Notes: generated by a model from the letters alone, not told the origin. 25,838 nucleotides of DNA from an uncultured Chloroflexia bacterium (GCA_963752475.1 CAVVYR010000010.1:1-25838), one strand, 5' to 3'; shown: positions 4,607 to 25,838, numbered from the stretch's first letter. A program made the numbers and translations.

Positions 4607-4645
4607 ACCGGCGGTCGAGTCCCCCACTCGGCCGCCGGTTTCTCA
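4607..4645. terminator. Stem-loop, probable bidirectional terminator
   Basis: accggcggtcgagt-ccccc-actcggccgccggt (14-bp stem with one G-U pair) followed by a short T run, between convergent genes. Confidence 0.65.
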
Positions 4646-4659
4646 TGTCGGCGGCCGAC

Positions 4660-5550: not shown

Positions 5551-5778
5551 GAGGTCCTCCCCGGCACCCAAGGGGTCGTGCCGCTGATGCTGCGCCCGCG
5601 TTCAGCGTGGCACGCGCATGTCCAGAGGGCCAGCGCGTTGTGCGGACCCTTGCGTAACTGCGAGTAGCGTACTTCGAACCAGACGAACACCAGGGACAGC
5701 GATCGCGGGGTGGCCGCAGGAACTGGCGGATAGCCCGAACCGGCCACGGCGTCATGGCGGAACGTGGTCCCCGCAGCG

Positions 5779-8361: not shown

Positions 8362-8937
8362 CGCGCCACCTCGTGCGTGGTGTGATCCGACATCGCCGGT
8401 CGGGCGTCCGCTTCGAGTGCCGCCCGCATCGCCTCATGGGCTCGATGCAGCCGGCTGCGGGCGGTACCCACGGCGATACCGAGAGCATCGGCGATGGCTT
8501 CGTGACTCATATCCGCGTAGTGGAAGAGCACCAAGACGTTGAGCATCGAGCGACAGGGGAAGCCCGAACCGATGCACTAGCCGACGACCGAGGCCGGGGC
8601 GGTCGTAGCGTCCTTCGGGAGCCACCTCCGGCGAGTCACGTCGCCATCGCTTGCGCTTGCGCCACTCGTTGCGGCACTCGTTGACCAGCGACTGGAAGCA
8701 CCACGATTTGAAGCGTTCGGGGTCGCGCAGCTGGGGCAGGTGGCGCCAGACCCGGACCATGGCCTGCTGGGTGGCGTCTTCAGCTGCGCCCAGGTCACCC
8801 ATGATCGAGTAGGCCACGCGGTGCAGCCGCGGATACATCGGCTCCACCAGCCAAGAGAACGCGTTCAGGTCGCCGTTCTGCGCCCGGCCCACCAAGTCGG
8901 CATACATCCCGACCCTGTGCCCCCGTTTGCCCAGCAC
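8358..8937 (-). CDS. ECF (sigma-70 group 4) sigma factor, frameshifted as sequenced
   Basis: Region 2 (AEDATQQAMVRVWRHL..LRDPERFKSW) is in ORF 8434-8937. Region 4 (MSHEAIADALGIAVGTARSRLHRA) is in ORF 8358-8546. GGAGG lies upstream of the GTG at 8937. Confidence 0.85.
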
Positions 8938-9964: not shown

Positions 9965-9966
9965 CG

Positions 9967-10566
9967 TTACCCCCTTTCCGGGCTCACGCCCGACCACAAC
10001 ACATCTACGATCTCTTCGGCCAGCGTCTCGATGTCGGCGCCCTCCGGCAGGTCCGGTTCCGCGAGCGTCGAGCGCTGCATCACCAGCGTCGAGGTCAGTC
10101 CGAAGAAGGCCTCTGCCAGCAGCCGCGCGTCGACGTCCGGCCGCAGCTGGCCGTCCGCCTGCCGCGCACGCAGGAAGCTCGCCATCCGCTCCAGGTTCGA
10201 GGTCGCGATCTCACTCATCGCGTCCTGGACCTCCGACGCCGAACGCGCCTCGAGGGTCAGGCGGAGCACCAAGCCACCGCTCGCGATGGCGTCCTGGATC
10301 TCGATCGCCGCGAGGTTGCGCAACGTCGACCGCAGATCATCGGGCACGACCGCGTCAGGCGGCGGGAACTCGCCGCGTGACGCAGCGGCCACGACGGCGA
10401 GGGCCTGCAAGATGCCGGCCTTGTTGTCGAACCGACGGAAGAGCGTGACCTCGTTGACACCGGCCGCCTCCGCGATGGCGCTGGTGGTAGTGCCGGTATA
10501 GCCGCGCTCCGCGATGAGCTCGGCCGCGGCTTCGAGGATCCGTGTCTCCGTGTCGCTGGGCGTCAT
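9967..10566 (-). CDS. TetR/AcrR-family transcriptional regulator
   Basis: ILEAAAELIAERGYTGTTTSAIAEAAGVNEVTLFRRFDNK HTH; C-terminal GQLRPDVD motif. Confidence 0.95.
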   Translation of the reverse strand: MTPSDTETRILEAAAELIAERGYTGTTTSAIAEAAGVNEVTLFRRFDNKAGILQALAVVAAASRGEFPPPDAVVPDDLRSTLRNLAAIEIQDAIASGGLVLRLTLEARSASEVQDAMSEIATSNLERMASFLRARQADGQLRPDVDARLLAEAFFGLTSTLVMQRSTLAEPDLPEGADIETLAEEIVDVLWSGVSPERG

Positions 10567-10578
10567 CGAAATCGCCTC

Positions 10579-10600
10579 TTGCAAGTAAGTACTTGCTTAC
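10579..10600. promoter_or_regulatory. Putative TetR operator
   Basis: AT-rich overlapping palindromes GCAAGT-aagt-ACTTGC (10581-10596) and GTAAG-tacttg-CTTAC (10585-10600) between divergent genes. Confidence 0.65.
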
Positions 10601-10612
10601 AGTAGCATAGCG

Positions 10613-12211
10613 ATGCAAGGAGCGCCGGCTGAAGGCGCCGAGAGGAATGGAGCGACGACGATGGGGGCAAGAGCGATCGGTACGGACACAACCACTGGGG
10701 GTGCTGCCGACCAGACCGGAGACCGAGGACACGCGGACCGGACGCGATCGTCAAGGATCGACCGCTGGGTCGGCCTGGGCGCCGCCATGGCGCTGGCGGT
10801 CGGCACCGGCATCCTGGCCGCCTGGCTGATGCCGCGCGGGCCCGCGACCACCGCCGAGGCCATCGGCTGGCTGGCGGCCGGTCTGCTCCTGGGCCTGGCC
10901 ATGGGCGCGATCTCGGCCACGCGCTGGTCGGTCGCGCTCGGAGCGGTGGCCTTCACCGCCGCCTTCGAGCTGGGCCGCGCCGGGACCTACGGGCCCACGG
11001 TGGATGCCGTCCAGCTGGGATCGACCTACGGCATCATCGCCTTCGTCGTGGGTCGGCTCCTGACCTACACGCTCGCGCTCCTGCCGCTGGCGCTCGGCGG
11101 CCTCGCCGGTGTGGCGCTGGCGGCGCGTCGCCAGCGCCTCGGTGCCACTCGGCCCGGGATCCTCGGCTGGTTCGTGGTGCTCGTGCTCAGCGCGTGCGTC
11201 GTCGGGATGGGGCTGCTGTTCCTTCGGCCGGCCAGCACGCCGGCGATCCTGGGTGCGGACGGCGAACCAGTACCCGGCTCGATCGCCGAGCTCACCAGCG
11301 TTCGGCTCGGTGGCCACGACCAGGCGCTTCTCATCCGCGGACGCAGTTCCGATGCGCCGGTCTTCCTCCATCTCGCCGGCGGCCCCGGCGGCACCGACCT
11401 CGGGGCCATGCGACGAGACACGTCACTGGAGGACGACTTCGTGGTCGTGACGTGGGACCAGCGAGGGACGGGCAAGTCATACGGCGCGCTCGACCCGATC
11501 GAGACCCTCACGCCCGAGCAGATGGTGGCCGACACCATCGAGCTGACCGAGTACTTGCGAGAGCGATTCGACGAGGATCGGATCTACCTGCACGGCAACT
11601 CGTGGGGCTCGCTGTTGGGCGTACTGGCGGTGGAGGCTCGCCCTGACCTGTATCACGCGTGGGTCGGCAGCGGCCAGATGGTCAGCCCACCTGGCACGGA
11701 CCGCATGTTCTGGGAGGACACCATCACCTGGGCCGAAACGCAGGGTGATACGGGACTCGTGGCGACGCTGCTCGAGAACGGCCCGCCACCGTACGCGGAC
11801 ATCCTCGCCTATGAGGCGGCGCTCTCGCACGAGCATGACTGGAACCCGTACCCCGAGTTCGACGGCGACGGCGAGATGCCGGCGACGCTCTTCGTTCCGG
11901 AAAACACGCTCATGGACCAGTTCAACGGCCTGCGCGCGTTCCTCGATACCTTCGCCGTCCTCTATCCGCGGATCCAGGAGATCGACCTGCGGCAGGAAGC
12001 GGCGCAGCTGGAGGTTCCGGTCTACCTCCTCACGGGAGGGCACGAGGCTCGCGGCCGAGCTGTCCTCGCAGACGAGTGGTTCGAGCTGCTGGACGCCCCG
12101 ACCAAGGAGGCGATCGTGTTCGAGCACTCGGGTCATCGACCCTCGTTCGAGGAGCCCGGCCGCTTCGCTGAGCTCATGCGCCGGGTCCGCGACGAGACGT
12201 ACGACCGCTAG
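10613..12211 (+). CDS. Membrane-anchored alpha/beta hydrolase (proline iminopeptidase-like)
   Basis: About 5 N-terminal TM helices, then LAGGPG, WDQRGTGKS, nucleophile GNSWG and catalytic SGH. The start may be at 10661. Confidence 0.85.
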   Translation: MQGAPAEGAERNGATTMGARAIGTDTTTGGAADQTGDRGHADRTRSSRIDRWVGLGAAMALAVGTGILAAWLMPRGPATTAEAIGWLAAGLLLGLAMGAISATRWSVALGAVAFTAAFELGRAGTYGPTVDAVQLGSTYGIIAFVVGRLLTYTLALLPLALGGLAGVALAARRQRLGATRPGILGWFVVLVLSACVVGMGLLFLRPASTPAILGADGEPVPGSIAELTSVRLGGHDQALLIRGRSSDAPVFLHLAGGPGGTDLGAMRRDTSLEDDFVVVTWDQRGTGKSYGALDPIETLTPEQMVADTIELTEYLRERFDEDRIYLHGNSWGSLLGVLAVEARPDLYHAWVGSGQMVSPPGTDRMFWEDTITWAETQGDTGLVATLLENGPPPYADILAYEAALSHEHDWNPYPEFDGDGEMPATLFVPENTLMDQFNGLRAFLDTFAVLYPRIQEIDLRQEAAQLEVPVYLLTGGHEARGRAVLADEWFELLDAPTKEAIVFEHSGHRPSFEEPGRFAELMRRVRDETYDR

Positions 12212-12220
12212 ACGCGTCCG

Positions 12221-13123
12221 TCAGGCGCTGTGGACGCTGGTGCGCAGGCGGAGGAGACGGTCGCTGGCGCAGATGAAGAGCCAGGTTCCGTCGGGCCCGC
12301 CGAAGCAGAAGTTGGCCACGACCGTGGGGGTCGCGATGGAACCGAGATGGCGTCCGTCGGGACCGACGACCCAGATGCCGCCGGGACCGCTGACCCAGAG
12401 GTTCCCGTGCTCGTCGCACTTGAGCCCGTCGGGGAAGCCGACCTCACCGTCGAACGGCTGCTCCATGTCGAAGAAGACGCCGCCGCCGGACAGCGAACCA
12501 TCGGCCGCGACGGTGTAGCGCATGATGCGCATGGCCTCGGTGTCATCGATGTAGAGGTATCGCCGATCGGGACTGAAGCAGAGCCCGTTGGGGGTCTGGA
12601 GGTCGGCGATCATCAGCACCGGCGGGGAGCCGGCATCGGGCTCTGCGATGCGGTACACGCCCCGGTATGGCATCACCAGCGGGCGCTCGATACCGTGGAC
12701 AGCGCGGCGACCATACGGCGGGTCGGTGAACCAGATCGCGCCGTCATCGGCCACGATGACGTCGTTGGGGCTATTCAGGCCACGGCCGTCGTGGCGGTCG
12801 GCTAGCAGCGTGACCGACCCTGTGGGCTCGAGGCGGATGACCCGGCTGGTGCCGTGCTCGCAGATGATGAGCCGGCCCTGGTGGTCGAGGGTCATGCCGT
12901 TGGCGAAGTCGGTCGGGCGTGCCAGCTCGGTGATCGTGCCGTCGAGGTCCCAGCGCCGGCGCACCTGCCCCGGGATGTCGTTGAAGATCAGATGGGCTGG
13001 GTCATCCCCCCGTTCCGGCACCCATACCGGTCCCTCGAGGAACCAGAAGCCGTCGCCTAGCGTCTCGATGGCATCGGGCTCCGGCACGAGGGCGAGGAAC
13101 TCAGGGTCGTGTTCCTGTGGCAT
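12221..13123 (-). CDS. SMP-30/gluconolactonase family protein
   Basis: EGPVW, ANGM, LNSPND, PNGL and FPDG motifs. AAAGGAG RBS before the ATG at 13123; the ORF-track extension to 13381 is not supported. Confidence 0.92.
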   Translation of the reverse strand: MPQEHDPEFLALVPEPDAIETLGDGFWFLEGPVWVPERGDDPAHLIFNDIPGQVRRRWDLDGTITELARPTDFANGMTLDHQGRLIICEHGTSRVIRLEPTGSVTLLADRHDGRGLNSPNDVIVADDGAIWFTDPPYGRRAVHGIERPLVMPYRGVYRIAEPDAGSPPVLMIADLQTPNGLCFSPDRRYLYIDDTEAMRIMRYTVAADGSLSGGGVFFDMEQPFDGEVGFPDGLKCDEHGNLWVSGPGGIWVVGPDGRHLGSIATPTVVANFCFGGPDGTWLFICASDRLLRLRTSVHSA

Positions 13124-13148
13124 CGGACTCCTTTCGCCTTTCGACGAG

Positions 13149-13259
13149 CTAGCCTTCGCGGCGCTTCGGATCTGACGTGGCGCCGAGCTTGTGACCCATG
13201 GTGCCGTTGATGACGAGACCGCCATCGGCCAACAGCTCGTGGCCGGTGATGTAGCGCGA
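13149..13259 (-). pseudogene. Orphan 3' remnant of a short-chain dehydrogenase (SDR) gene
   Basis: The minus strand reads SRYITGHELLADGGLVINGTMGHKLGATSDPKRREG-stop, the classic SDR C-terminal YITG..L..DGG motif. There is an in-frame stop just upstream and no start codon. Confidence 0.7.
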
Positions 13260-13280
13260 GCCTTTGCGTCATGTGCCGCG

Positions 13281-13315
13281 TGTATACTCGCCAGTAGTAT
13301 ACTTGGAAGTATACA
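13281..13315. promoter_or_regulatory. Three GTATAC palindromes upstream of the ATPase gene (putative operator/promoter)
   Basis: GTATAC at 13282, 13297 and 13309. The outer pair forms TGTATACT...AGTATACA. TATACT and TACAAT -10-like hexamers overlap them. Confidence 0.55.
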
Positions 13316-13361
13316 ATGGTGAACGTACCACTTCGAACTTCTTGATCGGTTCAGGGATCGC

Positions 13362-14756
13362 GTGGACGAACGCGCGGCCATGGAGGCCTGGTACGAGCGT
13401 GAGGACGAGACCAGAGCCCTGATGCTTCATGGGCGGAGACGTGCCGGCAAGTCCTGGCTGTTCCGAGCGTTCGTCGACGGCAGGGACGCTGACATCTTCG
13501 TGGCTTCGACCCGAGCCCTCGCGGATCAGCTGCATGGCTTCGCCGGCCAGCTCGCGGTCGCTGGTGAGCGGCCGCACCTGCCAGACCTCGAGACGTTCCT
13601 GCGTCTGCTGTACCGACGTGCCCGCGATACACCTCGGTTGGCAGTGATCGACGAGCTGCCCAACCTGATTGCGGTCGACCGCAGCCTTCCGAGCACCCTG
13701 CTCAAGGTCATGGAGGAAGAGGCCGCCGGATCGGGGCTCAAGCTGATCCTGACAGGGAGCCATGTGGCAGTGATGGAGGAGCTGCTGGCTGAGCGGCAGC
13801 CGCTCCACGACCGGCTTCAGAGCCTGCCGGTTCGAGCGCTCGACTTCTGGTCTGCCCGGACGATCCTGGGCGATGGTCCGGGCGACCGGCAACTGACGGC
13901 CTATGGCCTCGTCGGCGGGATGCCCAAGTACCTCTCGGAGATGGCCGGCGCGGCAGACCCACTGACGACGCTGGCCGAGGTGGCGCTGTCCCCGCTCGGG
14001 CGCCTCTTCGACGAGGGTCGGGCCGTCCTGGCCCAGGAACTCCAGCAGCCCGCGACGTACTTCAGCCTGCTGGGGGCGCTCGCGCTCGGGCCCGCCGATT
14101 TCGAGACCGTGGAGCGACGCAGCCGGGTCGAGCGTCACCGGATCACCAAGTACCTGGCCACGCTACGCGACCTCGGCCTCGTCGACTCGCGCGTGCCCGT
14201 GACCGAGTCGGGCGTCCGTACCCGGAGCCGGTCGTACGTGCTGGCCGACGGGTTCCTGCGCTTCTGGTTCCGCTACGTGTTCCCGTTCCAGGCGGACCTC
14301 GAAGCCGGCCTCGATCCGGCGACGATCGTGGCGCACGAGATCGAGCCCACGCTCTCGGACCACCTGGCCCCCGCCATGGAGGAGATCGCGCGCGCCTGGG
14401 TGAGACGTTCCGGCGTCGGTAGCGCCACCAAGGTCGGAGCCTGGTGGGGTCGGTCGCTGGACAGCCACCGTCGCCGCGGAGAGCGGACGAGCGAGGAGAT
14501 CGACATCGTCGGCCTCAAGGGCCGGCGTGCGACGGTCGTGGGTGAGGTCCGCTGGCGCAGGAAGCCGATGACCGTCGACATCCTCGAGGAGATCGATCGG
14601 TTCAAGCTGCCGGCCCTCGAACAGGCCGGGGTGGCTGTGGGCAGACCGGAGATCGTCCTGGTCAGCCGGTCGGGGTTCAGTCCAGGGCTGAGCGGTGCCG
14701 CCCGGAAGGACGCGCGGATCCACCTTGTTGGGCCGGACGACCTGGTACTCGCCTGA
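13362..14756 (+). CDS. Archaeal-type AAA ATPase (ATPase_2) with wHTH and C-terminal DUF234/PD-(D/E)xK-like domain
   Basis: Walker A GRRRAGKS, Walker B LAVIDELP, LILTGS, GGMPKYL, D.FLRFWFRYV and C-terminal EIDIV...GEVRW. The family-like F.DR..E N-terminus extends in frame to about 13350, so the true start is likely upstream (the ATG at 13316 is out of frame). Confidence 0.9.
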   Translation: MDERAAMEAWYEREDETRALMLHGRRRAGKSWLFRAFVDGRDADIFVASTRALADQLHGFAGQLAVAGERPHLPDLETFLRLLYRRARDTPRLAVIDELPNLIAVDRSLPSTLLKVMEEEAAGSGLKLILTGSHVAVMEELLAERQPLHDRLQSLPVRALDFWSARTILGDGPGDRQLTAYGLVGGMPKYLSEMAGAADPLTTLAEVALSPLGRLFDEGRAVLAQELQQPATYFSLLGALALGPADFETVERRSRVERHRITKYLATLRDLGLVDSRVPVTESGVRTRSRSYVLADGFLRFWFRYVFPFQADLEAGLDPATIVAHEIEPTLSDHLAPAMEEIARAWVRRSGVGSATKVGAWWGRSLDSHRRRGERTSEEIDIVGLKGRRATVVGEVRWRRKPMTVDILEEIDRFKLPALEQAGVAVGRPEIVLVSRSGFSPGLSGAARKDARIHLVGPDDLVLA

Positions 14757-14800
14757 CGACCTGGTACTCGCCTGACGACCTGGTACTCGCCTGACGACCT
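14736..14800 (+). repeat. Perfect 19-bp tandem repeat, 3.4 copies
   Basis: GACGACCTGGTACTCGCCT at 14736, 14755 and 14774, plus a partial copy at 14793. It spans the ATPase stop codon. Confidence 0.95.
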
Positions 14801-14888
14801 CGCACAGCCATGAACGCGTCACCGCTCTGGTCCTGCGGTCGTCGCTGCGGCTAGGCTGGGCCTGGCACATGCAGCAGGAGAGCGACCA

Positions 14889-15669: not shown

Positions 15670-17172
15670 TCAGTCCGCGAGTCGGGCGAAGACCGGCGCC
15701 AGCGCGGGGTAGAGCTCGCGATAGACGTCGAAGCGGTGACGGTAGGCGTCTCGGCCCGCCGCACTCGGCAGGACCTCGCGCCAGCCCGTGGACATGCGCC
15801 CGGCGGTGGCGACCACGTCCCACATCGCGTCCAGACCGACGGCCGCAGCGGCCAGCACCGCCGCGCCCAGCGCCGTGGTCTCCGAGTGCTCGGTGACCTC
15901 GACCGGACGCTCGAAGATGTCGGCGATCAACTGCACCCAGAAGCTGCTGTTGGCCCCGCCGCCCATGAGCCGCACACGCTCGGCACGGACGCCGGTGTCG
16001 GCCTCGATCATCTGGAGGATCTGCAGTTGCTCGTAGGTGATGCCCTCGAGCACGGCGCGATACATGTGCGCCACCCCATGGTGGACTCGCAGGCCGACCC
16101 AGGCACCCCGGGCATCGGGATCCCAGTGCGGCGCCTCGGCCCGGATGAGGTAGGGCAGGAACAGCAGTCCCTCGGCACCGGCGGGGACCTCGGCGGCTTC
16201 GGCCGTCAGGCGCGCCAGCGCCGCGTCGGACGTGTCCCGCAAGATCCGCGTACGGAACCAATCGAGCGAGTGGACGCCGCTCGCGAGTGCCGCCTCCAGC
16301 GTCCAGCGCCCGGCGATGGGACTGGCCATCGAGCGGTAGGCGGGCCCGGTCATGTAGCGATCGGCATGGACGCCCAGCGTCACGGCCGTGCCCAGGTTGA
16401 GGTAGGCAAGACCGCCTGCGCAGACCGCCGCGCCAAGTCCCGCGCTCTGGCCATCACCGGAGCCGGCGACCACCGGCGTTCCGGCCGGCAGCCCGGTCTC
16501 GCCCGCCGACGCCTCGCTGACCTCACCGATGACCGAACCCGGTGCGAAGAGAGCCGGGAGCTGCGAACGACGCACGCCGACCTGCGCGATGAGCTCGTCG
16601 GAGTAGCCGAACGTGCGCACATCGACGAGCCCGGTGGGGTCGGCGCTGGCCCAGCTGGTGGCCCACTCCCCTGTCAGTCGCTCGGCGAGGAAGGCGTGGA
16701 CCTCGGCGATCCGCCCGGCCCGCTGCAGGACCTCCGGCTCGTGCTCGTGGAGCCAGGCCAGCTTGTAGAACGTCGGCGCCGTGCTGGGCGGGCGCCCCGT
16801 CAGCTCGTGGACTCGCTCCGAGCCAAGCGCCCGGACCTGCGGTGTGGCGCGATCGTCGTTCCACAGGATCGCCGGCCGAAGTGGCATGCCCGCGCCATCG
16901 AGGCACACGAACGACTCACGCTGGTGCGTGATGCCGACCGCGCGAACGGCCACGGGCTCGACGGCTCCGGTGACCTCGCGCAGGGCCGAGCACGTGGCCT
17001 CCCACCACTCGTCCGACGACTGCTCCCGCCAGCCGGTGTGCGGCGACGAGGTCTCGATCGGCACGCGCGCGGAAGCCACGACCTCACCTTGCGCGGTGAA
17101 TGCGATCGCCTTGCAGGCGGTGGTGGAGAGGTCGACCGCGATGACGACGGGCCCCACGGCGTGGCTGGTCAC
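15670..17172 (-). CDS. FGGY-family carbohydrate kinase (xylulokinase-like)
   Basis: DLSTTACK, ILWNDDR, GDGQSAGLG, LFLPYL, RAVLEG and MGGGANS. Confidence 0.92.
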   Translation of the reverse strand: MTSHAVGPVVIAVDLSTTACKAIAFTAQGEVVASARVPIETSSPHTGWREQSSDEWWEATCSALREVTGAVEPVAVRAVGITHQRESFVCLDGAGMPLRPAILWNDDRATPQVRALGSERVHELTGRPPSTAPTFYKLAWLHEHEPEVLQRAGRIAEVHAFLAERLTGEWATSWASADPTGLVDVRTFGYSDELIAQVGVRRSQLPALFAPGSVIGEVSEASAGETGLPAGTPVVAGSGDGQSAGLGAAVCAGGLAYLNLGTAVTLGVHADRYMTGPAYRSMASPIAGRWTLEAALASGVHSLDWFRTRILRDTSDAALARLTAEAAEVPAGAEGLLFLPYLIRAEAPHWDPDARGAWVGLRVHHGVAHMYRAVLEGITYEQLQILQMIEADTGVRAERVRLMGGGANSSFWVQLIADIFERPVEVTEHSETTALGAAVLAAAAVGLDAMWDVVATAGRMSTGWREVLPSAAGRDAYRHRFDVYRELYPALAPVFARLAD

Positions 17173-17193: not shown

Positions 17194-18813
17194 CTAGGCC
17201 GCGGAGGTCGGGATGGGGTGGAAGAGGCAGCCGTCGACGAAGAGCTCGAAGAAGTCCGGCTCGGTCTCCAGCTCCACGTGCTCGATGCGACCGATGATCT
17301 CGTTGAGGGCCTCGCGGCGGCGGCGAGAGAGCAGCAGCATGGACGCACCCCGAAGTGCGGAGTTGCCCACGCGCTCCACGTGCTCCGGCTTCACCTGGGC
17401 GAGGAAGCCGATGTCGATGGCGTTCTCGATGTCGATGGCGTTCGCGAAGCCGCCGGCGAGGTACACGTGGTCGACATCCTGGGCGTCCAGACCCAGCTTG
17501 CGCAGCAGGATGCGCTGACCTGACGCGTTCGAAGCCTTGGCCTGTGCCAGCTGGCTGGCGTCTGCGCGCGAGAAGGTGATGCCGCGAGAGGGTGCGATGT
17601 CGTACTCGGTGCCGCCGTTCTCGAAGCGGCCCTCCGGGCTCATCCACTCGACTCGGCGAAGCTCGGCGAGGATGTCGACGAGGCCGGAACCACAGATACC
17701 CTCAGGCTCGTAGTCGCCGATGACCTGGTAGACGAACGCGTCGTCGTTGATGTGGACAGCCTCGATGGCACCGTCGGCGCCGGCCATGCCGAAGCGCAGC
17801 ATGCCGCCCTCGAAGGCGGGGCCGGCGGGGCTCGAGGCGGCCACGAAGCGCTCGCCGTCGGTGGCCACGATCTCGGTGTTGGTGCCGATGTCGATGAGGA
17901 GGGAGCTGCCGGGCGCGGAGCCGAAGTCGGTGGCTACCAGGTCGGCCGCCACATCCCCACCGACGTGGCTGGCGATCAGCGGCGCGCCCACCACGCGGGC
18001 CTGCGGGTGGATGAGGATGCCCAGCTCGTAGGCACGCTTGGTGACCCAGGTGGATTCGGCCTCGCCACGGAGCATGGCGTGCTCGGTGAGGGACTTGTAG
18101 GGCATCTCGCCGATGGACTTCACATCGATGTCGAAGAAGAGGTCACGCATCGTGGAGTTGGCCACGACCATGGCCTCGTAGACCTCGTGGCGGTCGATGC
18201 CCAGCTCCTTGTAGATGTCCTTGAGGCCGGCGTTGAGGGCTCGGCGGAGGGACTTGCGCAGGGTGCCGGGGTGGTCGCGCTCGTAGCCGATGCGGCTCAT
18301 CACGTCGCTGCCACCGAAGCGCTGGGGGTTCTCGAAGGCGCCGCCGCTCACGACGTGGCCGTCGGTCAGGTCGATGAGGCGGAAGACGACGGTGGTGGTG
18401 CCCACGTCGATGGCCAGGCCCAGGACGTGCTCGCGGCGCAGATCGAGGGTGATGCCGTCGTAGAGGACCGCGTGGTCGGTAGTGGTGACGACGGGGTCGA
18501 CCTCGGTGATGGGCTCGCCGGCGTCGGTGAGGATGTGCATCTTGCGCCGGATGACGGCGAACTCGATGTCACCCTCGGCCAATTCGACGGTCGCCTGGCA
18601 GGCGAGGCGGAACGCCTGGGGCAAGTACTCCTCGGCCTCGGTTCGGGGGCTGAGCTGGTCGCCGCCCTGGCGGACCTCGACGGCGCACTCGCGGCAGCGG
18701 CCGGAGCGGCTGCAGGATTGGGGCACGGCCAGCGAGACCTCGTCGGCATAGTCGAAGAGCGTCTTGCCGGTGGACAGGGGTCGGCGTTCGATGCCGTGGA
18801 TGATCTCGGGCAC
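17194..18813 (-). CDS. ASKHA-domain reductive activator of corrinoid proteins (RACo/DUF4445) with N-terminal 2Fe-2S domain
   Basis: C-x5-C-x2-C...RLAC iron-sulfur motif, DVGTTT, NPQ.FG.DVMSRI, DIGTNTE, AGPAFEG and GICGSG. Start is GTG 18813 or TTG 18825. Confidence 0.9.
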   Translation of the reverse strand: MPEIIHGIERRPLSTGKTLFDYADEVSLAVPQSCSRSGRCRECAVEVRQGGDQLSPRTEAEEYLPQAFRLACQATVELAEGDIEFAVIRRKMHILTDAGEPITEVDPVVTTTDHAVLYDGITLDLRREHVLGLAIDVGTTTVVFRLIDLTDGHVVSGGAFENPQRFGGSDVMSRIGYERDHPGTLRKSLRRALNAGLKDIYKELGIDRHEVYEAMVVANSTMRDLFFDIDVKSIGEMPYKSLTEHAMLRGEAESTWVTKRAYELGILIHPQARVVGAPLIASHVGGDVAADLVATDFGSAPGSSLLIDIGTNTEIVATDGERFVAASSPAGPAFEGGMLRFGMAGADGAIEAVHINDDAFVYQVIGDYEPEGICGSGLVDILAELRRVEWMSPEGRFENGGTEYDIAPSRGITFSRADASQLAQAKASNASGQRILLRKLGLDAQDVDHVYLAGGFANAIDIENAIDIGFLAQVKPEHVERVGNSALRGASMLLLSRRRREALNEIIGRIEHVELETEPDFFELFVDGCLFHPIPTSAA

Positions 18814-18946: not shown

Positions 18947-19022
18947 TGGCGAGTGGCCAAACGGTAAGGCACCTGACTCTGGATCAGGGGATTGAAGGTT
19001 CGAAATCCTTCCTCGCCAGCCA
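18947..19022 (+). tRNA. tRNA-Gln(CTG)
   Basis: Acceptor TGGCGAG/CTCGCCA + GCCA, D arm GCC-AAACGGTAA-GGC, anticodon arm CCTGA-CT CTG GA-TCAGG, T arm GAAGG-TTCGAAAT-CCTTC (one extra A relative to the downstream copies). Confidence 0.97.
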
Positions 19023-19267
19023 TCCCCTCTTCTGAGCGTGAATTGGGCGTTGTCCTTTGTGCTCAGGTGAGTCGCACCACTAGCACGCCGCTCTTCATGG
19101 CATTTCGTAGACGGTGGCCTGCGCGTCGAACCAGAGTGTCGGCGCCACTCCCCGGGTGGCGCCCTCGACCCCGCGTGGGCTCCGGACGGGTCCCGCGAGC
19201 ATCCGTCCGCGTGGATTTGGCGCATCCCCGCCTGCGGCCTCGGACAGGCGGGCAACGCGGCGTACCG

Positions 19268-21916
19268 CTACTTGCCCTTGAAGGTGGCCGTGTAGTTCTC
19301 CGTCATCGTGCAGTTCTGGCCGTTGAGCTTGGCCTTGCCTACGAGCTTGCCGGTGATCTTCCTGGGCGAGTTCACCTTCAGGTTGTACTGGAACTTGATG
19401 CTCTGCCCACCTTCGGTGTGCGTCGAGGTGCCGACAAAGGTGTTCTTCTTTGCGTTCTTGAGCTTCATCCTGGCGGCCGCTCCTGAATTGGGGTCGCCGA
19501 TGGTGAACGCGGACTTCGCGGCATCGACCTTGATCCAGCCAGGCTCGCCCTTCCGTGACGGCAGCGCTACCGTCCTGCCCCCGCACGTGAACTTGACGTT
19601 CGTGGTGTCGACCGACCAGTTGCCGGCCTTGGGTAGACGGACGCTCGGCTTCGTGGGCTCGTCGGCCTCCTCATCGGGCCGCGCATCCTCGTCCTCAGGG
19701 GGATTGACGGTGTCGTCGGTCGGTGGCTCGGATGCGCTGGCCTCGTCCTCGCCGGGGGCGGGGGCGGTCTCGGTGCGCGGCTCGCTGAAGTAGAGCACGC
19801 AGGTCGTGGCGGTCCCTGGCAGCAGCGTGTGGCTGACGCTGGCGCCGACCGCGGCCGTGTCGGAGCCGGTGCTGGTGCCGGCGCCGGCGTCGACGTCGGT
19901 GCAGACCGCCGAGTCGAAGGACAGCGGACCTGGATCGGTGACAGTGATGGTGATGGGGCCGGGCTCGAGCGGGCCGCGGGCGATGCGCTCGTCCGCGCCG
20001 AGGGTCAGGGCCTCAGCGTCGAGCTCGAGGCCAAAGGGGCCGGCACCCGCGGGGATGGGCGCGACGAGGGGCGGGTCGTCGTCGGTGAGGATGCCGTCCA
20101 CGAGGATGGTCAGGCTGGCCTCGTCCGCGCCGGGGGCGGGGGCAGACTCGCTCGGCGAGACCTCCAGCAGTCGATAGGTGCAGGTGACGTCGCTGCCGGG
20201 TGGCGTGAGCAGGGCCACGGGTCGGCTCGGCAGCGTGCCGGGCGGGAAGCTCGCGCCGGTGGTCGGATCGATGAGGCCGATGCCCCGGCCGTGCTGGTCA
20301 AGACAGGCGAGCCCGTCGATGACGTAGGGCGCCGAGGGCGCCGCGGACCACAGCCTGAAGGCCTCGTCGGCGGGGACCGCGAACGTGCGCGGGCTGCCGG
20401 GCGCGATGTCGACAGGCACGACCGGCTCGGCGGCATCGACGACCACGCTGACCGAGGCACCGGGCGCGGCGGGGTCGGCCTCGGCCGCGAGCGTGACGGT
20501 GCGGGCGACGGTGGCATGGCTGAGCCAGAAGCCGCAGCCGGTGAGGGTGGACGGGGGGTCGTCGAACGTCACCCGGCCGGCCTCGAGGTCGAGGTCCCCG
20601 AAGGTGCGGACCGCGTCGATGCCCTCTCGGGTGCTGCAGGCGATCTCGGTCAGGATGTGGTCGGGATCCGGGTCGACGAGCTGGAGCGTGAGCGGTCGGC
20701 CGAGCGCCACCTCGACCTGGCGTGGCGTCGTGTTCGTCACCCGCAGCGGTGTGCCGTCGACCTCGATGTCGAAGGCGGCGACCTCGTCGGCCGGGTCGGT
20801 GCCGACGGTGAGGCGGATGGGGATGGTGGGGGCGCGCTGCAGTCGGTAGCTGCAGTCGGTGACATCGGCCGGCTCGAGGGCGACGACGACGCGGCCGGCG
20901 TCAGGACCGAACTCGATGGGTGTCACCTCGCTGCCGTCGTCACGGGTGCACTCGATGGCGCCGAGCTGATGGTCGGGGCCAGGATCGATGAGCTCGATGG
21001 TCGCGCGGTCAGCAGCGCTCGGGGCGACCACGTACGGGTCCCCCATCGCGACAGCCGTCCGTGCGCCGTCGATGGCGAAGCCGAAACGCGCTCCGGCATC
21101 GGCTGGCTCGGTCGCGACGCGGACGATGGCGCCACCCCGCAGGGCCGTCGGGTCCAGCAGTCGATAGGTGCAGGTGACGTCGCTGCCGGGTGGCGTGAGC
21201 AGGGCCACGGGTCGGCTCGGCAGCGTGCCGGGCGGGAAGCTCGCGCCGGTGGTCGGATCGATGAAGCCGATGCCCCGGCCGTGCTGGTCAAGACAGGCGA
21301 GCCCGTCGATGACGTAGGGCGCCGAGGGCGCCGCGGACCACAGCCTGAAGGCCTCGTCGGCGGGGACCGCGAACGTGCGCGGGCTGCCGGGCGCGATGTC
21401 GACAGGCACGACCGGCTCGGCGGCATCGACGACCACGCTGACCGAGGCACCGGGCGCGGCGGGGTCGGCCTCGGCCGCGAGCGTGACGGTGCGGGCGACG
21501 GTGGCATGGCTGAGCCAGAAGCCGCAGCCGGTGAGGGTGGACGGGGGGTCGTCGAACGTCACCCGGCCGGCCTCGAGGTCGAGGTCCCCGAAGGTGCGGA
21601 CCGCGTCGATGCCCTCTCGGGTGCTGCAGGCGATCTCGGTCAGGATGTGGTCGGGATCCGGGTCGACGAGCTGGAGCGTGAGCGGTCGGCCGAGCGCCAC
21701 CTCGACCTGGCGTGGCGTCGTGTTCGTCACCCGCAGCGGTGTGCCGTCGACCTCGATGTCGAAGGCGGCGACCTCGTCGGCCGGGTCGGTGCCGACGGTG
21801 AGGCGGATGGGGATGGTGGGGGCTTCGGCTTCGGCAGCGATGGCAGTTGCACCACCGATCGCCGCCATCGCAACGGGCAGTGCCGCGAGCAGGAGTGTCC
21901 GAGCTGTGCGCTGCAT
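19268..21916 (-). CDS. Secreted modular protein: six ~110-aa two-Cys beta-rich domains (A-B-C-A-B-D) plus a Lys-rich C-terminal domain
   Basis: Signal peptide MQRTARTLLLAALPVAMAAIGGATAIA-A. Each module has an (I/L/V)xC...CxY/F Cys pair. An acidic Pro linker precedes the basic terminal domain. Confidence 0.85.
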   Translation of the reverse strand: MQRTARTLLLAALPVAMAAIGGATAIAAEAEAPTIPIRLTVGTDPADEVAAFDIEVDGTPLRVTNTTPRQVEVALGRPLTLQLVDPDPDHILTEIACSTREGIDAVRTFGDLDLEAGRVTFDDPPSTLTGCGFWLSHATVARTVTLAAEADPAAPGASVSVVVDAAEPVVPVDIAPGSPRTFAVPADEAFRLWSAAPSAPYVIDGLACLDQHGRGIGFIDPTTGASFPPGTLPSRPVALLTPPGSDVTCTYRLLDPTALRGGAIVRVATEPADAGARFGFAIDGARTAVAMGDPYVVAPSAADRATIELIDPGPDHQLGAIECTRDDGSEVTPIEFGPDAGRVVVALEPADVTDCSYRLQRAPTIPIRLTVGTDPADEVAAFDIEVDGTPLRVTNTTPRQVEVALGRPLTLQLVDPDPDHILTEIACSTREGIDAVRTFGDLDLEAGRVTFDDPPSTLTGCGFWLSHATVARTVTLAAEADPAAPGASVSVVVDAAEPVVPVDIAPGSPRTFAVPADEAFRLWSAAPSAPYVIDGLACLDQHGRGIGLIDPTTGASFPPGTLPSRPVALLTPPGSDVTCTYRLLEVSPSESAPAPGADEASLTILVDGILTDDDPPLVAPIPAGAGPFGLELDAEALTLGADERIARGPLEPGPITITVTDPGPLSFDSAVCTDVDAGAGTSTGSDTAAVGASVSHTLLPGTATTCVLYFSEPRTETAPAPGEDEASASEPPTDDTVNPPEDEDARPDEEADEPTKPSVRLPKAGNWSVDTTNVKFTCGGRTVALPSRKGEPGWIKVDAAKSAFTIGDPNSGAAARMKLKNAKKNTFVGTSTHTEGGQSIKFQYNLKVNSPRKITGKLVGKAKLNGQNCTMTENYTATFKGK
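20163..21823. repeat. 671-bp direct repeat inside the secreted protein gene (20163-20833 and 21153-21823)
   Basis: Offset 990 bp. Only one difference was seen by eye (20275 g vs 21265 a; Leu vs Phe). Confidence 0.95.
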
Positions 21917-22103
21917 TCACGACAGGCTACAGGTGCTGTCAAAGGTGCCTGCCTCTCCTTCGTGAGCACCAAGTTCGCGGTTAGGATCCGAGTGACAGCT
22001 CCACTCCTCAGCCAACCTCTCGACACTCACCCGTGAGGTAAGGCACCTAACTGAACGCGCTACGCTCCCCTCGCCACGGCGGGTAGCACGCCGCTCAGGC
22101 GTT

Positions 22104-22153
22104 CCTGACTCTGGATCAGGGGATTGAAGGTTCGAATCCTTCCTCGCCAGCCA
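22104..22153 (+). repeat. tRNA-Gln 3' portion, att-like copy 1
   Basis: CCTGACTCTGGATCAGGGGATTGAAGGTTCGAATCCTTCCTCGCCAGCCA matches 18972-19022 except for the extra A in the gene. Confidence 0.93.
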
Positions 22154-22217
22154 TTCCTTTGCCCGTGAACGAGGTCCCGGAACACCATCCGGGGCCTCGG
22201 TGATTCGTGGCTTCGAC

Positions 22218-22269
22218 TTGACGCCCTCGCGTTACACATCTATGGTCATCAGTGACATGGTTGTGCAAC
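22218..22269 (+). promoter_or_regulatory. Sigma-70-type promoter with an overlapping imperfect inverted repeat (operator), copy 1
   Basis: TTGACG-N17-TATGGT (22218-22246). Arms gttacacatctatggtca (22231-22248) and tgacatggttgtgcaac (22253-22269). Confidence 0.65.
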
Positions 22270-22970
22270 AGAACGTCGACGGTCGCGAGTTGGATGTGAA
22301 CCAGGCAGCCCAACTGCTCTCGCTGCGTCCGCGCTCGGTCCTGCGGCTGATCCGGGATGGTGAGCTGCCCGCGCGCAAGGAGTTCGGGCGCTGGCGCATC
22401 CTGCGCAGCGACGTCGAGGTTCGCCGTGAACTCGGCTCGCGCGGCGGTCGACGCTACTCGCCCGCACAAGCCTGGGGCCTCATCGCCATCGTCAGCGGTG
22501 GCCAAGCCCCGTGGCTCGACCGGGTCTCGCGCTGGCGTATCGAACGACGGCTCGACGGACGCTCCCTCGACGAGCTGCGCAGCGCACTTGCAGAGCGAGG
22601 CCGAGCCCATCGCTACGCCGCACATCCCGACTCGATCGCTCGGCTGGGCGGCATGACTGGTGCGATGCTCTCCGGGCTTCCAGGCGCCGCCGCGAGTGGC
22701 GTCGGTGTCATCGCGAGCAGCGAGCACTACGAGGCCTACCTACCCGCGTCGACTCTCGCCGAGGCCGTGCGGGAACACCATCTACGTGAGGACCTCGAGG
22801 GCTCGGTCATCCTGCGTCCGGTCGTGGCCGGGGCGCTGCCGAGACCCTGGCCCGATGTCGCACCGAGTCTCGCCGTCGCAGTCGACCTGCTCGAGAGCCA
22901 CGATCCACGCGCACGTCAGGTCGGTCGCGATCTGCTTGCCGAGCTCCAGGACGCCTGGCGGGGCCGGTGA
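22257..22970 (+). CDS. Excisionase-like HTH (HTH_17) fused to an AbiEi-like domain; putative antitoxin, copy 1
   Basis: LDVNQAAQLLSLRPRSVLRLIRDGELPARKEFGRWRI HTH. The C-terminal VAP.LAVAVDLLES.DPRAR resembles AbiEi_2/DUF2186. Start placed at ATG 22257, downstream of the promoter. Confidence 0.75.
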   Translation: MVVQQNVDGRELDVNQAAQLLSLRPRSVLRLIRDGELPARKEFGRWRILRSDVEVRRELGSRGGRRYSPAQAWGLIAIVSGGQAPWLDRVSRWRIERRLDGRSLDELRSALAERGRAHRYAAHPDSIARLGGMTGAMLSGLPGAAASGVGVIASSEHYEAYLPASTLAEAVREHHLREDLEGSVILRPVVAGALPRPWPDVAPSLAVAVDLLESHDPRARQVGRDLLAELQDAWRGR

Positions 22971-23710
22971 ACGAGGCTCGGTCCAAGACGGTCGAGGTCG
23001 TGTCGGGATCCGCAGCCGAGGCGCGGCTGTGGGTGACGCTGCGCGAGGTCTGCGGACTCTTCGAGGGCCTCGAATGGGTCCTCGTCGGAGGACTGATGGT
23101 GAAGGTCCTCGAGGCTGAGCATGGCCGGGTCATGCCCGTCACCACCATCGACATCGACGCCATCATCGACGTGCGCGCGATGCTGCGCGGCCAGGGCACA
23201 CGTGAGGCAGTACGACGGCTCAAGACGGCTGGCTTCGTCCCGTTCGAGCCTGACCGCGAGACGGTCTATCGCTTCACCCGCGACGACGACATCGTCGACG
23301 TGCTCGTCCCCGACGGGCTCGGTGACCGCGCAGACATCGTGACCGAGCCACCAGCGACGACGTTCCGCACGCCAGGCGGCTCGCGAGCCCTGCAACAGAG
23401 GCGTTCGCTGCTCATCACGAGTGGTGGCGATACGATCAGCGTGCCCGTGCCCGATCTCGGGGGTGCGCTCGTCATCAAGGCCCGGGCGGCGACGAACGCA
23501 AGGACAAGCCGATCGAAGCACCAGCGCGACCTCGCGCGTCTACTCGTGCTCGTCGAACACCCATACGACCTGCGCGAAGCTCTGACCATGACGGAGCGAC
23601 AGCACCTGCGCCGGCACCGTGCTCTGACCGAGCCGGATCACGACGCGTGGTCCGAGTTGCCCGACAATTCGGTTGTCGGCGCCCAGACGCTCACGATCAT
23701 CATCGACTGA
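22967..23710 (+). CDS. AbiEii/MenT-like (DUF1814-type) nucleotidyltransferase; putative toxin, copy 1
   Basis: WVLVGGL...TIDIDAI Pol-beta-superfamily motif, VDVL and C-terminal K.RA...KH.RDL. GTGA overlap with the upstream gene. Confidence 0.75.
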   Translation: MNEARSKTVEVVSGSAAEARLWVTLREVCGLFEGLEWVLVGGLMVKVLEAEHGRVMPVTTIDIDAIIDVRAMLRGQGTREAVRRLKTAGFVPFEPDRETVYRFTRDDDIVDVLVPDGLGDRADIVTEPPATTFRTPGGSRALQQRRSLLITSGGDTISVPVPDLGGALVIKARAATNARTSRSKHQRDLARLLVLVEHPYDLREALTMTERQHLRRHRALTEPDHDAWSELPDNSVVGAQTLTIIID

Positions 23711-23846
23711 TCCCGAAGCAACGCTCATGCGCAAGACCTTGGCCGACCTGCTCACGCCGGGCTCGGCGAGTAGTCGAGCGCAATGGAACTTCGGGAACGC
23801 GACCGGAAGCCTCGGTCGGAGCGGTAGGTACGGTGGTGCGCATCAA

Positions 23847-23875
23847 GCGTCTCCCCTGACTGACAGCGGAGACGC
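23847..23875 (+). terminator. Stem-loop downstream of the nucleotidyltransferase
   Basis: GCGTCTCC...GGAGACGC 8-bp stem with inner CTG/CAG pairing and no U tract. Repeated at about 25709-25737. Confidence 0.35.
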
Positions 23876-23928
23876 CAACCGAAGCATCCGAGGACCAAGA
23901 GTCCGATGAGCTCAGTCGAGCGTGGCGC

Positions 23929-24010
23929 CTCTGGATCAGGGTATTGAAGGTTCAAATCCTTCCTCCTCTGGATCAGGGGATTGAAGGTTCGAATCCTTCC
24001 TCGCCAGCCA
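23929..24010 (+). repeat. Two back-to-back tRNA-Gln 3' fragments (att-like copies 2 and 3)
   Basis: A variant 37-mer at 23929-23965 (GGTATT, TTCAAAT, truncated at CCTC) is followed at once by a canonical copy at 23966-24010 ending GCCAGCCA. Both start at the anticodon loop CTCTGGA. Confidence 0.93.
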
Positions 24011-24074
24011 TTCCTTTGCCCGTGAACGAGGTCCCGGAACACCATCCGGGGCCTCGGTGATTCGTGGCTTCGAC

Positions 24075-24126
24075 TTGACGCCCTCGCGTTACACATCTAT
24101 GGTCATCAGTGACATGGTTGTGCAAC
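24075..24126 (+). promoter_or_regulatory. Promoter/operator, copy 2
   Basis: Same sequence as 22218-22269. Confidence 0.65.
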
Positions 24127-24827
24127 AGAACGTCGACGGTCGCGAGTTGGATGTGAACCAGGCAGCCCAACTGCTCTCGCTGCGTCCGCGCTCGGTCCTG
24201 CGGCTGATCCGGGATGGTGAGCTGCCCGCGCGCAAGGAGTTCGGGCGCTGGCGCATCCTGCGCAGCGACGTCGAGGTTCGCCGTGAACTCGGCTCGCGCG
24301 GCGGTCGACGCTACTCGCCCGCACAAGCCTGGGGCCTCATCGCCATCGTCAGCGGTGGCCAAGCCCCGTGGCTCGACCGGGTCTCGCGCTGGCGTATCGA
24401 ACGACGGCTCGACGGACGCTCCCTCGACGAGCTGCGCAGCGCACTTGCAGAGCGAGGCCGAGCCCATCGCTACGCCGCACATCCCGACTCGATCGCTCGG
24501 CTGGGCGGCATGACTGGTGCGATGCTCTCCGGGCTTCCAGGCGCCGCCGCGAGTGGCGTCGGTGTCATCGCGAGCAGCGAGCACTACGAGGCCTACCTAC
24601 CCGCGTCGACTCTCGCCGAGGCCGTGCGGGAACACCATCTACGTGAGGACCTCGAGGGCTCGGTCATCCTGCGTCCGGTCGTGGCCGGGGCGCTGCCGAG
24701 ACCCTGGCCCGATGTCGCACCGAGTCTCGCCGTCGCAGTCGACCTGCTCGAGAGCCACGATCCACGCGCACGTCAGGTCGGTCGCGATCTGCTTGCCGAG
24801 CTCCAGGACGCCTGGCGGGGCCGGTGA
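24114..24827 (+). CDS. HTH_17-AbiEi-like putative antitoxin, copy 2
   Basis: Protein identical to copy 1. Confidence 0.75.
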   Translation: MVVQQNVDGRELDVNQAAQLLSLRPRSVLRLIRDGELPARKEFGRWRILRSDVEVRRELGSRGGRRYSPAQAWGLIAIVSGGQAPWLDRVSRWRIERRLDGRSLDELRSALAERGRAHRYAAHPDSIARLGGMTGAMLSGLPGAAASGVGVIASSEHYEAYLPASTLAEAVREHHLREDLEGSVILRPVVAGALPRPWPDVAPSLAVAVDLLESHDPRARQVGRDLLAELQDAWRGR

Positions 24828-25571
24828 ACGAGGCTCGGTCCAAGACGGTCGAGGTCGTGTCGGGGTCCGCGGCCGAGGCGCGGCTGTGGGTGACGCTGCG
24901 CGAGGTCTGCGGACTCTTCGAGGGCCTCGAATGGGTCCTCGTCGGAGGACTGATGGTGAAGGTCCTCGAGGCTGAGCATGGCCGGGTCATGCCCGTCACC
25001 ACCATCGACATCGACGCCATCATCGACGTGCGCGCGATGCTGCGCGGCCAGGGCACACGTGAGGCAGTACGACGGCTCAAGACGGCTGGCTTCGTCCCGT
25101 TCGAGCCTGACCGCGAGACGGTCTATCGCTTCACCCGCGACGACGACATCGTCGACGTGCTCGTCCCCGACGGGCTCGGTGACCGCGCAGACATCGTGAC
25201 CGAGCCACCAGCGACGACGTTCCGCACGCCAGGCGGCTCGCGAGCCCTGCAACAGAGGCGCTCAGCTGCTCATCACGAGTGGCAGCGATACGCATCAGCG
25301 TGCCCGTGCCCGATCTCGGGGGCGCGCTCCGTCATCAAGGCCCGGGCGGCGACGAACGCAAGGACAAGCCGATCGAAGCACCAGCGCGACCTCGCGCGAT
25401 CTACTCGTGCTCGTCGAACACCCATACGACCTGCGCGAAGCTCTGACCATGACGGAGCGACAGCACCTGCGTCGGCACCGTGCTCTGACCGAGACGGATC
25501 ACGACGCGTGGTCCGAGTTGCCCGACGATTCGGCTATCGGCGCCCAGACGCTCACGATCATCATCGACTGA
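24824..25571 (+). pseudogene. Nucleotidyltransferase copy 2, frameshifted after about 25260
   Basis: Same N-terminal ~147 aa as copy 1, then four single-base insertions (net +4; homologous stop at 25569-25571) plus several substitutions. Confidence 0.7.
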
Positions 25572-25790
25572 TCCCTGAAGCAACGCTGATGCGCAAGACC
25601 TTGGCCGACCGTGCCACGCCGGGCTCGGCGAGTGGTCGAGCGCGATGGAACTTCGGGAACGCGACCGGAAGCCTCGGTCGGAGCGGTAGGTACGGTGGTG
25701 CGCATCAAGCGTCTCCCCTGACTGACAGCGGAGACGCCAACCGAAGCATCCGAGGACCAAGAGTCCGATGAGCTCAGTCGAGCGTGGCGC

Positions 25791-25837
25791 CTCTGGATCA
25801 GGGTATTGAAGGTTGCGAAATCCTTCCTCGCCAGCCA
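25791..25837 (+). repeat. tRNA-Gln 3' fragment, att-like copy 4
   Basis: CTCTGGATCAGGGTATTGAAGGTTGCGAAATCCTTCCTCGCCAGCCA at the window end; starts at the anticodon loop. Confidence 0.88.
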
Positions 25838-25838
25838 T

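Follow-up and report, generated by a model that had tools for sequence, protein, structure and literature searches.

An array of tRNA-Gln 3' halves and integrase-less segments in an uncultured Limnocylindria-like Chloroflexota bacterium: probable tandem accretion of islands at one tRNA gene

The window analysed here, 25,838 nt long, is the entire contig C10 (CAVVYR010000010.1) of an uncultured bacterium referred to below as G000, whose metagenome-assembled genome (4.25 Mb in 38 contigs, 88.8% complete, with 5.8% contamination) represents a little-studied Limnocylindria-like soil and sediment lineage of the Chloroflexota. Its right-hand part is occupied by an array that begins with a tRNA-Gln(CTG) gene and continues as short protein-coding segments punctuated by copies of the 3' half of this tRNA (Table 1). 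An initial annotation, made from the sequence alone, had proposed an integron-like system in which tRNA halves act as cassette recombination sites for an integrase acting in trans. The array was compared with the other contigs of G000, with 48 further genomes of the genus (49 genomes searched in all) and with contigs from independent sequencing runs, and it is probably a genome hotspot of a known kind rather than a new integron-like system.

Table 1. Features of the tRNA-Gln(CTG) array in the window (positions on contig C10).
Feature	Position	Strand	Basis
Intact tRNA-Gln(CTG), attachment site (att) end attL of the array	18947-19022	+	ARAGORN; Rfam, 62.5 bits
Segment 1, 3.1 kb, one gene	19023-22103		Analysis of open reading frames (ORFs)
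Sole gene of segment 1, 882-aa protein with a signal-peptide-like N-terminus	19268-21916	-	Translation
Decayed tRNA-Thr(CGT) 3' half, tRNA positions 31-75, 34/45 identical, no gaps	21959-22003	+	Score 46 versus a maximum of 32 in 300 shuffles
Type A arm, including a decayed tRNA-Gln-like 5' half	22018-22103	+	83% identity to C29:17930-18018
tRNA-Gln 3' copy, tRNA positions 26-76, including the 5' strand of the anticodon stem	22104-22153	+	blastn-short
Segment 2, 1.8 kb, two genes	22154-23928	+	ORFs, domain scans
First gene of segment 2, HTH_17 domain (44 bits), weak AbiEi_2 match	22200 (or ATG 22257)-22970	+	Domain scans
Sigma-70-like promoter site of segment 2	22218-22246, and its copy	+	2 found versus 0.2 expected
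Second gene of segment 2, 247-aa protein with a GG...DID motif	22967-23710	+	Motif read from the translation
Type B arm, hairpin CGTCTCC...GGAGACG 81 nt upstream of the crossover point	23846-23928	+	Alignment
Truncated tRNA-Gln 3' copy, 37 nt, tRNA positions 31-68, GGGTATT variant	23929-23965	+	blastn-short
tRNA-Gln 3' copy, tRNA positions 31-76, starting at the first anticodon-loop base	23966-24010	+	blastn-short
Second copy of segment 2	24011-25790	+	Self-comparison
Type B arm of the second copy of segment 2	25708-25790	+	Alignment
Last tRNA-Gln 3' copy, tRNA positions 31-76	25791-25837/25838 (contig end)	+	blastn-short

A blastn-short search of all G000 contigs with the intact tRNA-Gln as the query, together with ARAGORN and Rfam, confirmed the annotated count of one complete gene and four 3' copies in the window. 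The annotated starting points of the copies were also reproduced: three begin at the first base of the 7-nt anticodon loop (tRNA position 31), and the fourth begins 5 nt earlier, in the anticodon stem (position 26). The truncated third-from-last copy directly abuts the next one with zero spacer. The 45-mer CTCTGG...GCCAGCCA gave two matches with at most three mismatches and none in any of 100 shuffles, and the copies are therefore not due to chance; this search misses the remaining copies, which carry indels. Two tRNA genes called by ARAGORN within the array, tRNA-Gln at 22077-22153 and tRNA-Leu at 23918-24010, were rejected as fragments. The T-loop of the gene described as intact is 8 nt long (TTCGAAATC, 19001-19008), one A longer than the TTCGAATC present in every copy covering the T-loop at 13 of 13 loci of relatives with this tRNA (locus L081 ends before the T-loop), and the T-loop of the last copy (25814-25822) has both an extra A and an extra G that no relative has. 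A homopolymer error of long-read sequencing probably accounts for the extra A; were that A real, the sole tRNA-Gln(CTG) of G000 would have an 8-nt T-loop.

The repeated unit exceeds the tRNA half, since conserved arms of about 85-125 nt (typically about 95 nt) precede most of the halves, and the sequence about 10-30 nt past each half is also similar, in groups. Arms designated as type B were found 17 times, comprising five in G000, eight in the relative G021, two in G001, one in G010 and one at locus L078, possibly the same as one of the numbered genomes. A GTCTCC...GGAGAC hairpin is located 81-83 nt upstream of the crossover point in 13 of the 19 aligned copies. Arms of type A are present at C10:22018-22103, at C29:17930-18018 on another contig of G000, and once in the genome G006. 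Because the type A arm holds a decayed tRNA-Gln-like 5' half, positions 22077-22150 score as a weak tRNA (Rfam, 39.3 bits); an Rfam search with the arms gave no match at E <= 1. The succession of arm, core and half is the layout expected of an attR junction: on the left stands the element's P arm, followed by the core and the half belonging to the next site.

At the type A sites the junction is compound: a decayed tRNA-Thr(CGT) 3' half is followed, after a spacer of about 73 nt, by a pseudo-tRNA-Gln with a decayed 5' half and a perfect 3' half. This arrangement was found at 21959-22153 in the window, at C29:17915-18068 and once in G006. The counterpart of the tRNA-Thr half on C29 is reduced to 16 nt and, taken alone, is at the level of chance. 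One possibility is that the element was earlier mobilised from a site where att regions of tRNA-Thr and tRNA-Gln adjoined.

In the window, the segments between the copies contain one or two genes each. The 882-aa gene of segment 1 carries an internal duplication of 671 bp (20163-20833 and 21153-21823, 990-bp spacing, 99.85% identity), reflecting either a very recent domain duplication or a repeat of a sort that assemblers may miscount. Its product fell into no family of Pfam, NCBIfam or PADLOC, lacks close homologues among the 48 other genomes of the genus, and yielded a sub-threshold lead alone (0.75) in a protein atlas. In segment 2, the HTH_17 protein matches an excisionase-type DNA-binding domain at 25.4 bits, below the NCBIfam cut-off of 28.8. 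The 247-aa protein has no Pfam family, and in its nearest Atlas clusters (0.97-0.98) AbiEii-type nucleotidyltransferases make up 11-13% of the members. The gene pair is probably an AbiE-like toxin-antitoxin pair, which is offered as a lead; PADLOC gave no match for any of the three segment proteins. Homologues of the 247-aa protein with 44-59% aa identity were found in ten other genomes of the genus, two of them near tRNA-Pro genes, and no tRNA-Gln halves occur within 1.5 kb of these ten. Each unit had been annotated as having its own promoter; a sigma-70-like site was identified for the 1.8-kb unit, and none was found for the other.

The annotated repetition of the 1.8-kb cassette is present in the assembly (22102-23965 versus 23960-25829, 98.7% identity), with a second copy that probably contains sequencing errors. 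Relative to the first copy it has 14 substitutions, eight one-base insertions and one deletion, all past 23008 in copy-1 coordinates; up to 25260 the two differ by two substitutions alone, and beyond this point further substitutions and one-base indels follow and the second gene is broken. Further data were provided by contigs of sequencing runs that include X1, X2, X6 and X18; these contigs are short and broken at repeats, and X1 may be the source sample. Single-base errors in copy 2 are probable because the X6 contig lacks four of its insertions, and in an X1 contig one insertion is offset by a nearby deletion.

These observations are compatible with a partial assembly artefact: the last half and the 1.8-kb copy preceding it would then be products of a noisy contig end or of a strain variant placed in tandem by a long-read assembler. 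For this part of the array we regard such an artefact as less likely than not. It would fit the location of the duplicate at the very end of the contig, the clustering of the differences in the last 600 bp, including the eight one-base insertions that break the gene, and the one-base homopolymer difference that distinguishes even the intact tRNA from all relatives. It would also fit the junction at 23965/23966, where a truncated half is set against a full half, a product that site-specific recombination does not yield. On the other hand, copy-2 substitutions at 23425, 23426 and 23666 (copy-1 coordinates) are present in the X1 and X2 contigs, and a second sequence variant therefore exists. Moreover, the remaining array is independent of copy 2 and is reproduced in other genomes and samples: in four runs from four studies contigs extend from the tRNA 3' end (19004) into segment 1, and X2 and X6 contigs lead from segment 1 across the type A arm to the tRNA half at 22122. 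The X18 contigs cover segment 1 and leave segment 2 almost without cover, from which no inference was drawn. The tandem duplicate, situated as it is at the contig end, may be regarded as a candidate only.

Since the final base of the last tRNA half is also the final base of C10, the array has been cut by the assembly, and it continues on contig C29. The latter carries copies of tRNA-Gln at 6973-7008 (the half can also be delimited as 6964-7008), 16241-16285 and 18019-18062, degenerate tRNA-like copies at 23421-23490 and 30252-30326, and a solo arm at 19633-19721; no intact tRNA-Gln was found on it. The first 6759 nt of C29, which encode an ATP-binding cassette (ABC) transporter, a radical-SAM activase and a fragment of a glycyl-radical enzyme, are orthologous to positions 30169-36994 of the G021 array (76.7-78.5% nt identity, with six ORFs at 72.5-92% aa identity), where the counterpart sits between two halves. 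Because this ortholog lies inside the tRNA-Gln array of G021, C10 and C29 belong to a single locus, at least 37 kb in extent, and are separated by an unassembled gap; no contig filling the gap was found in G000. The genes to the left of the common segment in G021 (araA, lacI) are located elsewhere in G000, on C19.

Other members of the genus have comparable arrays. A strict 41-mer pattern was found at least once in 36 of the 49 genomes and at least twice in 11. In G021, where the locus lies on a 1.1-Mb contig, an intact tRNA is followed by ten copies over 67 kb at spacings of 1.8-20 kb; G010 has the tRNA and two copies 21.5 and 45 kb downstream; in G001 two copies are found on a separate contig, along with more arms. 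One of the 11 genomes with at least two pattern copies, G064, was considered as another case of a 1.8-kb cassette (C38:3272-5217, locus L154) and rejected, as the pattern there belongs to two complete, differing tRNA-Gln(CTG) genes 1.87 kb apart.

Upstream of tRNA-Gln, synteny with G021, G010 and G001 is retained at 72-82% nt identity, and the content between the repeats differs among these relatives except for one common segment, in line with the variable cassette content that had been predicted. The divergence of the segment common to G000 and G021 equals that of core genes, which points to inheritance rather than recent transfer. As for the cargo, the G021 array has 61 candidate ORFs, of which 42 were scanned; 29 of these 42 have a Pfam family, all metabolic, transport or regulatory, such as sugar ABC transporters, GH1, ROK, LacI, AraA, transaldolase, PGI, MacB/HlyD and an extracytoplasmic function (ECF) sigma factor; none of the 42 belongs to a mobility or replication family. 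The idea of a stockpile of surface and defence genes thus does not fit the cargo as a whole, which in G021, the best-assembled relative, is mostly devoted to sugar metabolism and transport.

Some of the att-bounded units are small, with one or two genes in about 1.8-2.5 kb. Besides segment 2, they include a DUF4143 ATPase unit at C29:16286-18018 and two units of G021 encoding an alpha/beta-hydrolase and a UPF0261 protein. The DUF4143/AAA_14 ATPase module (C29:16585-17930, locus L167) has sharp ends and is found between tRNA-Gln halves in G000 and G006 (L168, 93% nt identity) and between tRNA-Thr halves in G021 (L169, 85%) and G054 (L170, 83%). Because the module sits at both Gln and Thr halves, single-gene modules must have changed arrays.

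No recombinase was detected in the window by a six-frame search for PF00589, a search for serine recombinases, or tblastn with a 383-aa integrase of the clade concerned, in agreement with the initial annotation. Across G000, the six-frame PF00589 search produced a total of three matches, of which C14 has two and C1 one fragment; none lies on C10 or near the array, and no serine recombinase was found. The two C14 genes are about 40 kb apart, and because an equally spaced pair is conserved in all three other genomes checked, we infer that they are housekeeping Xer-type genes.

Integrase relics are located 80-300 bp downstream of tRNA-Gln, in convergent orientation wherever the strand was read, in five relatives and at locus L073. 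In G021 the relic comprises the C-terminal 79 aa of a tyrosine recombinase with the HxLRH...GH...Y signature, encoded on the opposite strand with the frame broken upstream. With this fragment as the query, relics were identified at the same position in G019, G005 and G008, again on the opposite strand, and, with the strand left aside, in G058; at L073 three integrase fragments lie on the opposite strand. G000 itself has a relic at C29:7154-7237, which encodes about 30 aa at 64-68% identity on the opposite strand, 146 bp past the half at 6964-7008, and shows integrase truncation directly. An intact integrase adjoining tRNA-Gln was found in none of the 49 genomes, G000 being 88.8% complete.

Within the genus and a sample of 201 genomes of the family, full-length members of the same clade adjoin other tRNA genes, namely tRNA-Pro, tRNA-Lys and tRNA-Arg. 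In G063, for example, an intact 383-aa integrase with Phage_integrase and SAM_3 (SAM-like) domains is encoded 1.5 kb from tRNA-Pro(GGG). The search of the 201 family genomes for an intact integrase linked to tRNA-Gln recovered clade members beside tRNA-Pro and tRNA-Lys only; locus L159, belonging to an unpublished genome, was excluded. Displaced 3' halves accompany other tRNA genes of G000 as well: a half 22.6 kb from tRNA-Thr(CGT) (C1:192458-215356), with integrase fragments at C1:210890-215356, and single halves 2.5 kb from tRNA-Gly(CCC) (C6:82765-85410) and 5.4 kb from tRNA-Gly(TCC) (C29:234956-240498). The tRNA-Thr halves likewise start at tRNA position 31. The register of the copies and the convergent relics beside tRNA-Gln bear out the assumption that the copies are att scars of tyrosine recombinases whose crossover point lies in the anticodon loop.

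An origin without any integrase, in which the tRNA region was duplicated locally or underwent unequal homologous recombination, could be considered, given that the 1.8-kb unit is duplicated in tandem and that two complete tRNA-Gln(CTG) genes stand close together in G064. Such an origin would not lead one to expect copies that start at the anticodon loop rather than at arbitrary points, arms unrelated to the upstream flank of the tRNA itself, integrase relics adjoining the copies, or mutually unrelated segments between them, and we consider it highly improbable.

The array probably arose by tandem accretion of integrase-borne islands at tRNA-Gln(CTG), followed by loss of the integrases. According to this model, the islands would belong to one family of integrative elements, each carrying a tyrosine integrase that recombined the attP of the element with the tRNA through a crossover in the 7-nt anticodon loop. 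Each insertion would have rebuilt the tRNA from a 3' half brought by the element, forming attL, and pushed the previous 3' half downstream, so that an arm of the element now precedes that half as attR. Repeated insertions would produce the order of tRNA, segment, arm with half, segment, and again arm with half. The integrase gene, lying directly past attL on the opposite strand, would later have been deleted or truncated, leaving cargo segments that lack an integrase, range in length from 1.8 kb to over 20 kb and retain their att-like ends. The decayed integrase-bearing islands that the initial annotation had named as the finding contrary to its proposal are thus what the relics indicate, with the integrase carried in cis and then lost. 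We infer that the segments are now immobile in G000 unless an integrase arrives from outside, and the order of events is reconstructed in the same manner. By analogy with other systems, the segments may be cis-mobilizable elements or simply fixed remnants.

Several points weigh against this model. At either side of the small segments (1.8 kb, one or two genes) the att-like ends are still clean, which random decay does not predict, bearing in mind that segments were recognised by their ends alone. The 45/45 identity of the half at 22109-22153 with the tRNA of relatives suggests a young event or gene conversion, and every integrase seen linked to tRNA-Gln is a relic. The ends of the ABC transporter and glycyl-radical enzyme segment have different arm subtypes in G000 and G021, for which simple vertical descent does not account. 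An integrase could lie in the unassembled gap between C10 and C29 of this incomplete genome. Finally, tblastn detected no integrase relic within the window in segments 1 and 2 or in the second copy, and the origin of these particular segments from integrase-bearing elements is proposed by analogy.

Some of the same observations would suit an integron-like arrangement of small mobile cassettes whose site consists of the arm and tRNA half (about 140-170 nt), served by an integrase whose gene lies elsewhere or belongs to a visiting element. The several one- or two-gene units with att-like sites on both sides, the conservation of the arm over 17 copies with a hairpin at a fixed spacing, and the presence of the ATPase module at halves of two different tRNAs could be accounted for in this way, as could the perfect half at 22109-22153 and the cargo of segments 1 and 2, which is without close homologues in the 48 genomes and is nevertheless joined to arms typical of the genus. 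Against it stand the absence of an intact candidate integrase in G000 and of one adjoining tRNA-Gln in the 49 genomes, the relics indicating an integrase carried in cis, the graded decay among the att copies, and the inheritance of one segment at core-gene divergence. In addition, the ATPase module of G000 and G006 drags along a truncated tRNA-Thr half, and it was therefore not moved by precise recombination at tRNA-Gln sites. Neither a circle nor an empty-site junction was seen, although the run contigs, short and broken at repeats, could not have revealed one. The cassette system proposed at the outset is for these reasons improbable. Equally improbable is its corollary, that working minimal integrase-less cassettes exist in Limnocylindria and that tRNA genes serve as open docks swapping single genes, even between Gln and Thr.

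Outside the array, the window contains a stretch of about 10 kb (4640-14872) that is missing from the syntenic part of G021, where the neighbouring genes abut. It encodes an alpha/beta hydrolase, a TetR regulator, a lactonase-like protein and a DUF234 ATPase (13362-14756), the last of which matches the candidate defence family PDC-S27 (PADLOC, E = 1.6e-15).

For annotation, it should be noted that two tRNA calls in the window are fragments, that the array breaks the assembly, and that two contigs represent one locus. Worth retaining are the compound Thr/Gln junction, the connection of C10 with C29, the caution due to a duplicate at the contig end, and the conserved arm; this arm and the att-flanked single-gene units would matter more if excision were shown.

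The array resembles integrons in extending to one side as a series of short gene units, in having a conserved site of recombination type at the end of each unit, and in its association with a tyrosine-type recombinase. It differs from them in that the six-frame PF00589 search revealed no intI beside the array, the sites appear to be tRNA halves with arms bearing one short hairpin instead of attC hairpins, the units reach more than 20 kb, and the relics suggest that each unit once brought its own integrase.

A closer parallel is offered by the cis-mobilizable elements (CIMEs) and site-specific accretion of streptococci, where att-flanked segments without integrase or transfer genes stand in tandem with related integrative elements, and where mobilization of a CIME by a neighbouring element has been shown experimentally. 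Segments 1 and 2 have the structure of such elements, being att-flanked and devoid of integrase, excisionase and transfer genes of their own, except that the excisionase-type domain match of the HTH_17 protein, below cut-off as it is, may mean that segment 2 does encode an excisionase. The likeness is one of sequence organisation, and no intact helper element was found in G000.

The tycheposons of Prochlorococcus are described as successive integrations split by partial tRNAs, with fragmented integrases (Hackl et al., 10.1101/2020.12.28.424599). Shared with the present locus are the anchoring of islands at tRNA genes, the inward displacement of older elements, scattered partial tRNAs and integrase remnants, and a cargo of metabolic and defence genes. 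Unlike tycheposons, the segments studied here, which are known from sequence alone, have no primase/helicase module among the segment proteins scanned (0 of the 42 scanned among 61 ORFs in G021).

The most similar case, from the same phylum, is that of the tandem ssrA islands of Dehalococcoides, for which 15 islands without an integration module, proposed to be cis-mobilizable or fixed, and an integration module placed on the reverse strand beside attL are reported (McMurdie et al. 2011, PMC3146451). There, too, tandem islands lie past one small-RNA gene and are bounded by repeats of its 3' end, with extra conserved nucleotides just upstream of each repeat. The Dehalococcoides islands target the tmRNA gene through a serine recombinase (DsiB, CcrB-like) and a 20-bp repeat in the T-loop; in the present array tRNA-Gln(CTG) is targeted, the relics are those of a tyrosine recombinase, each integrase seen beside that tRNA is a relic, and the repeat comprises about 45 nt from the anticodon loop onwards plus an arm of about 95 nt. 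The mode of building flexible genome regions described in Dehalococcoides and Prochlorococcus, whereby one tRNA gene would gather successive islands and keep their cargo once the integrases decay, can thus be documented in this uncultured lineage of Chloroflexota.

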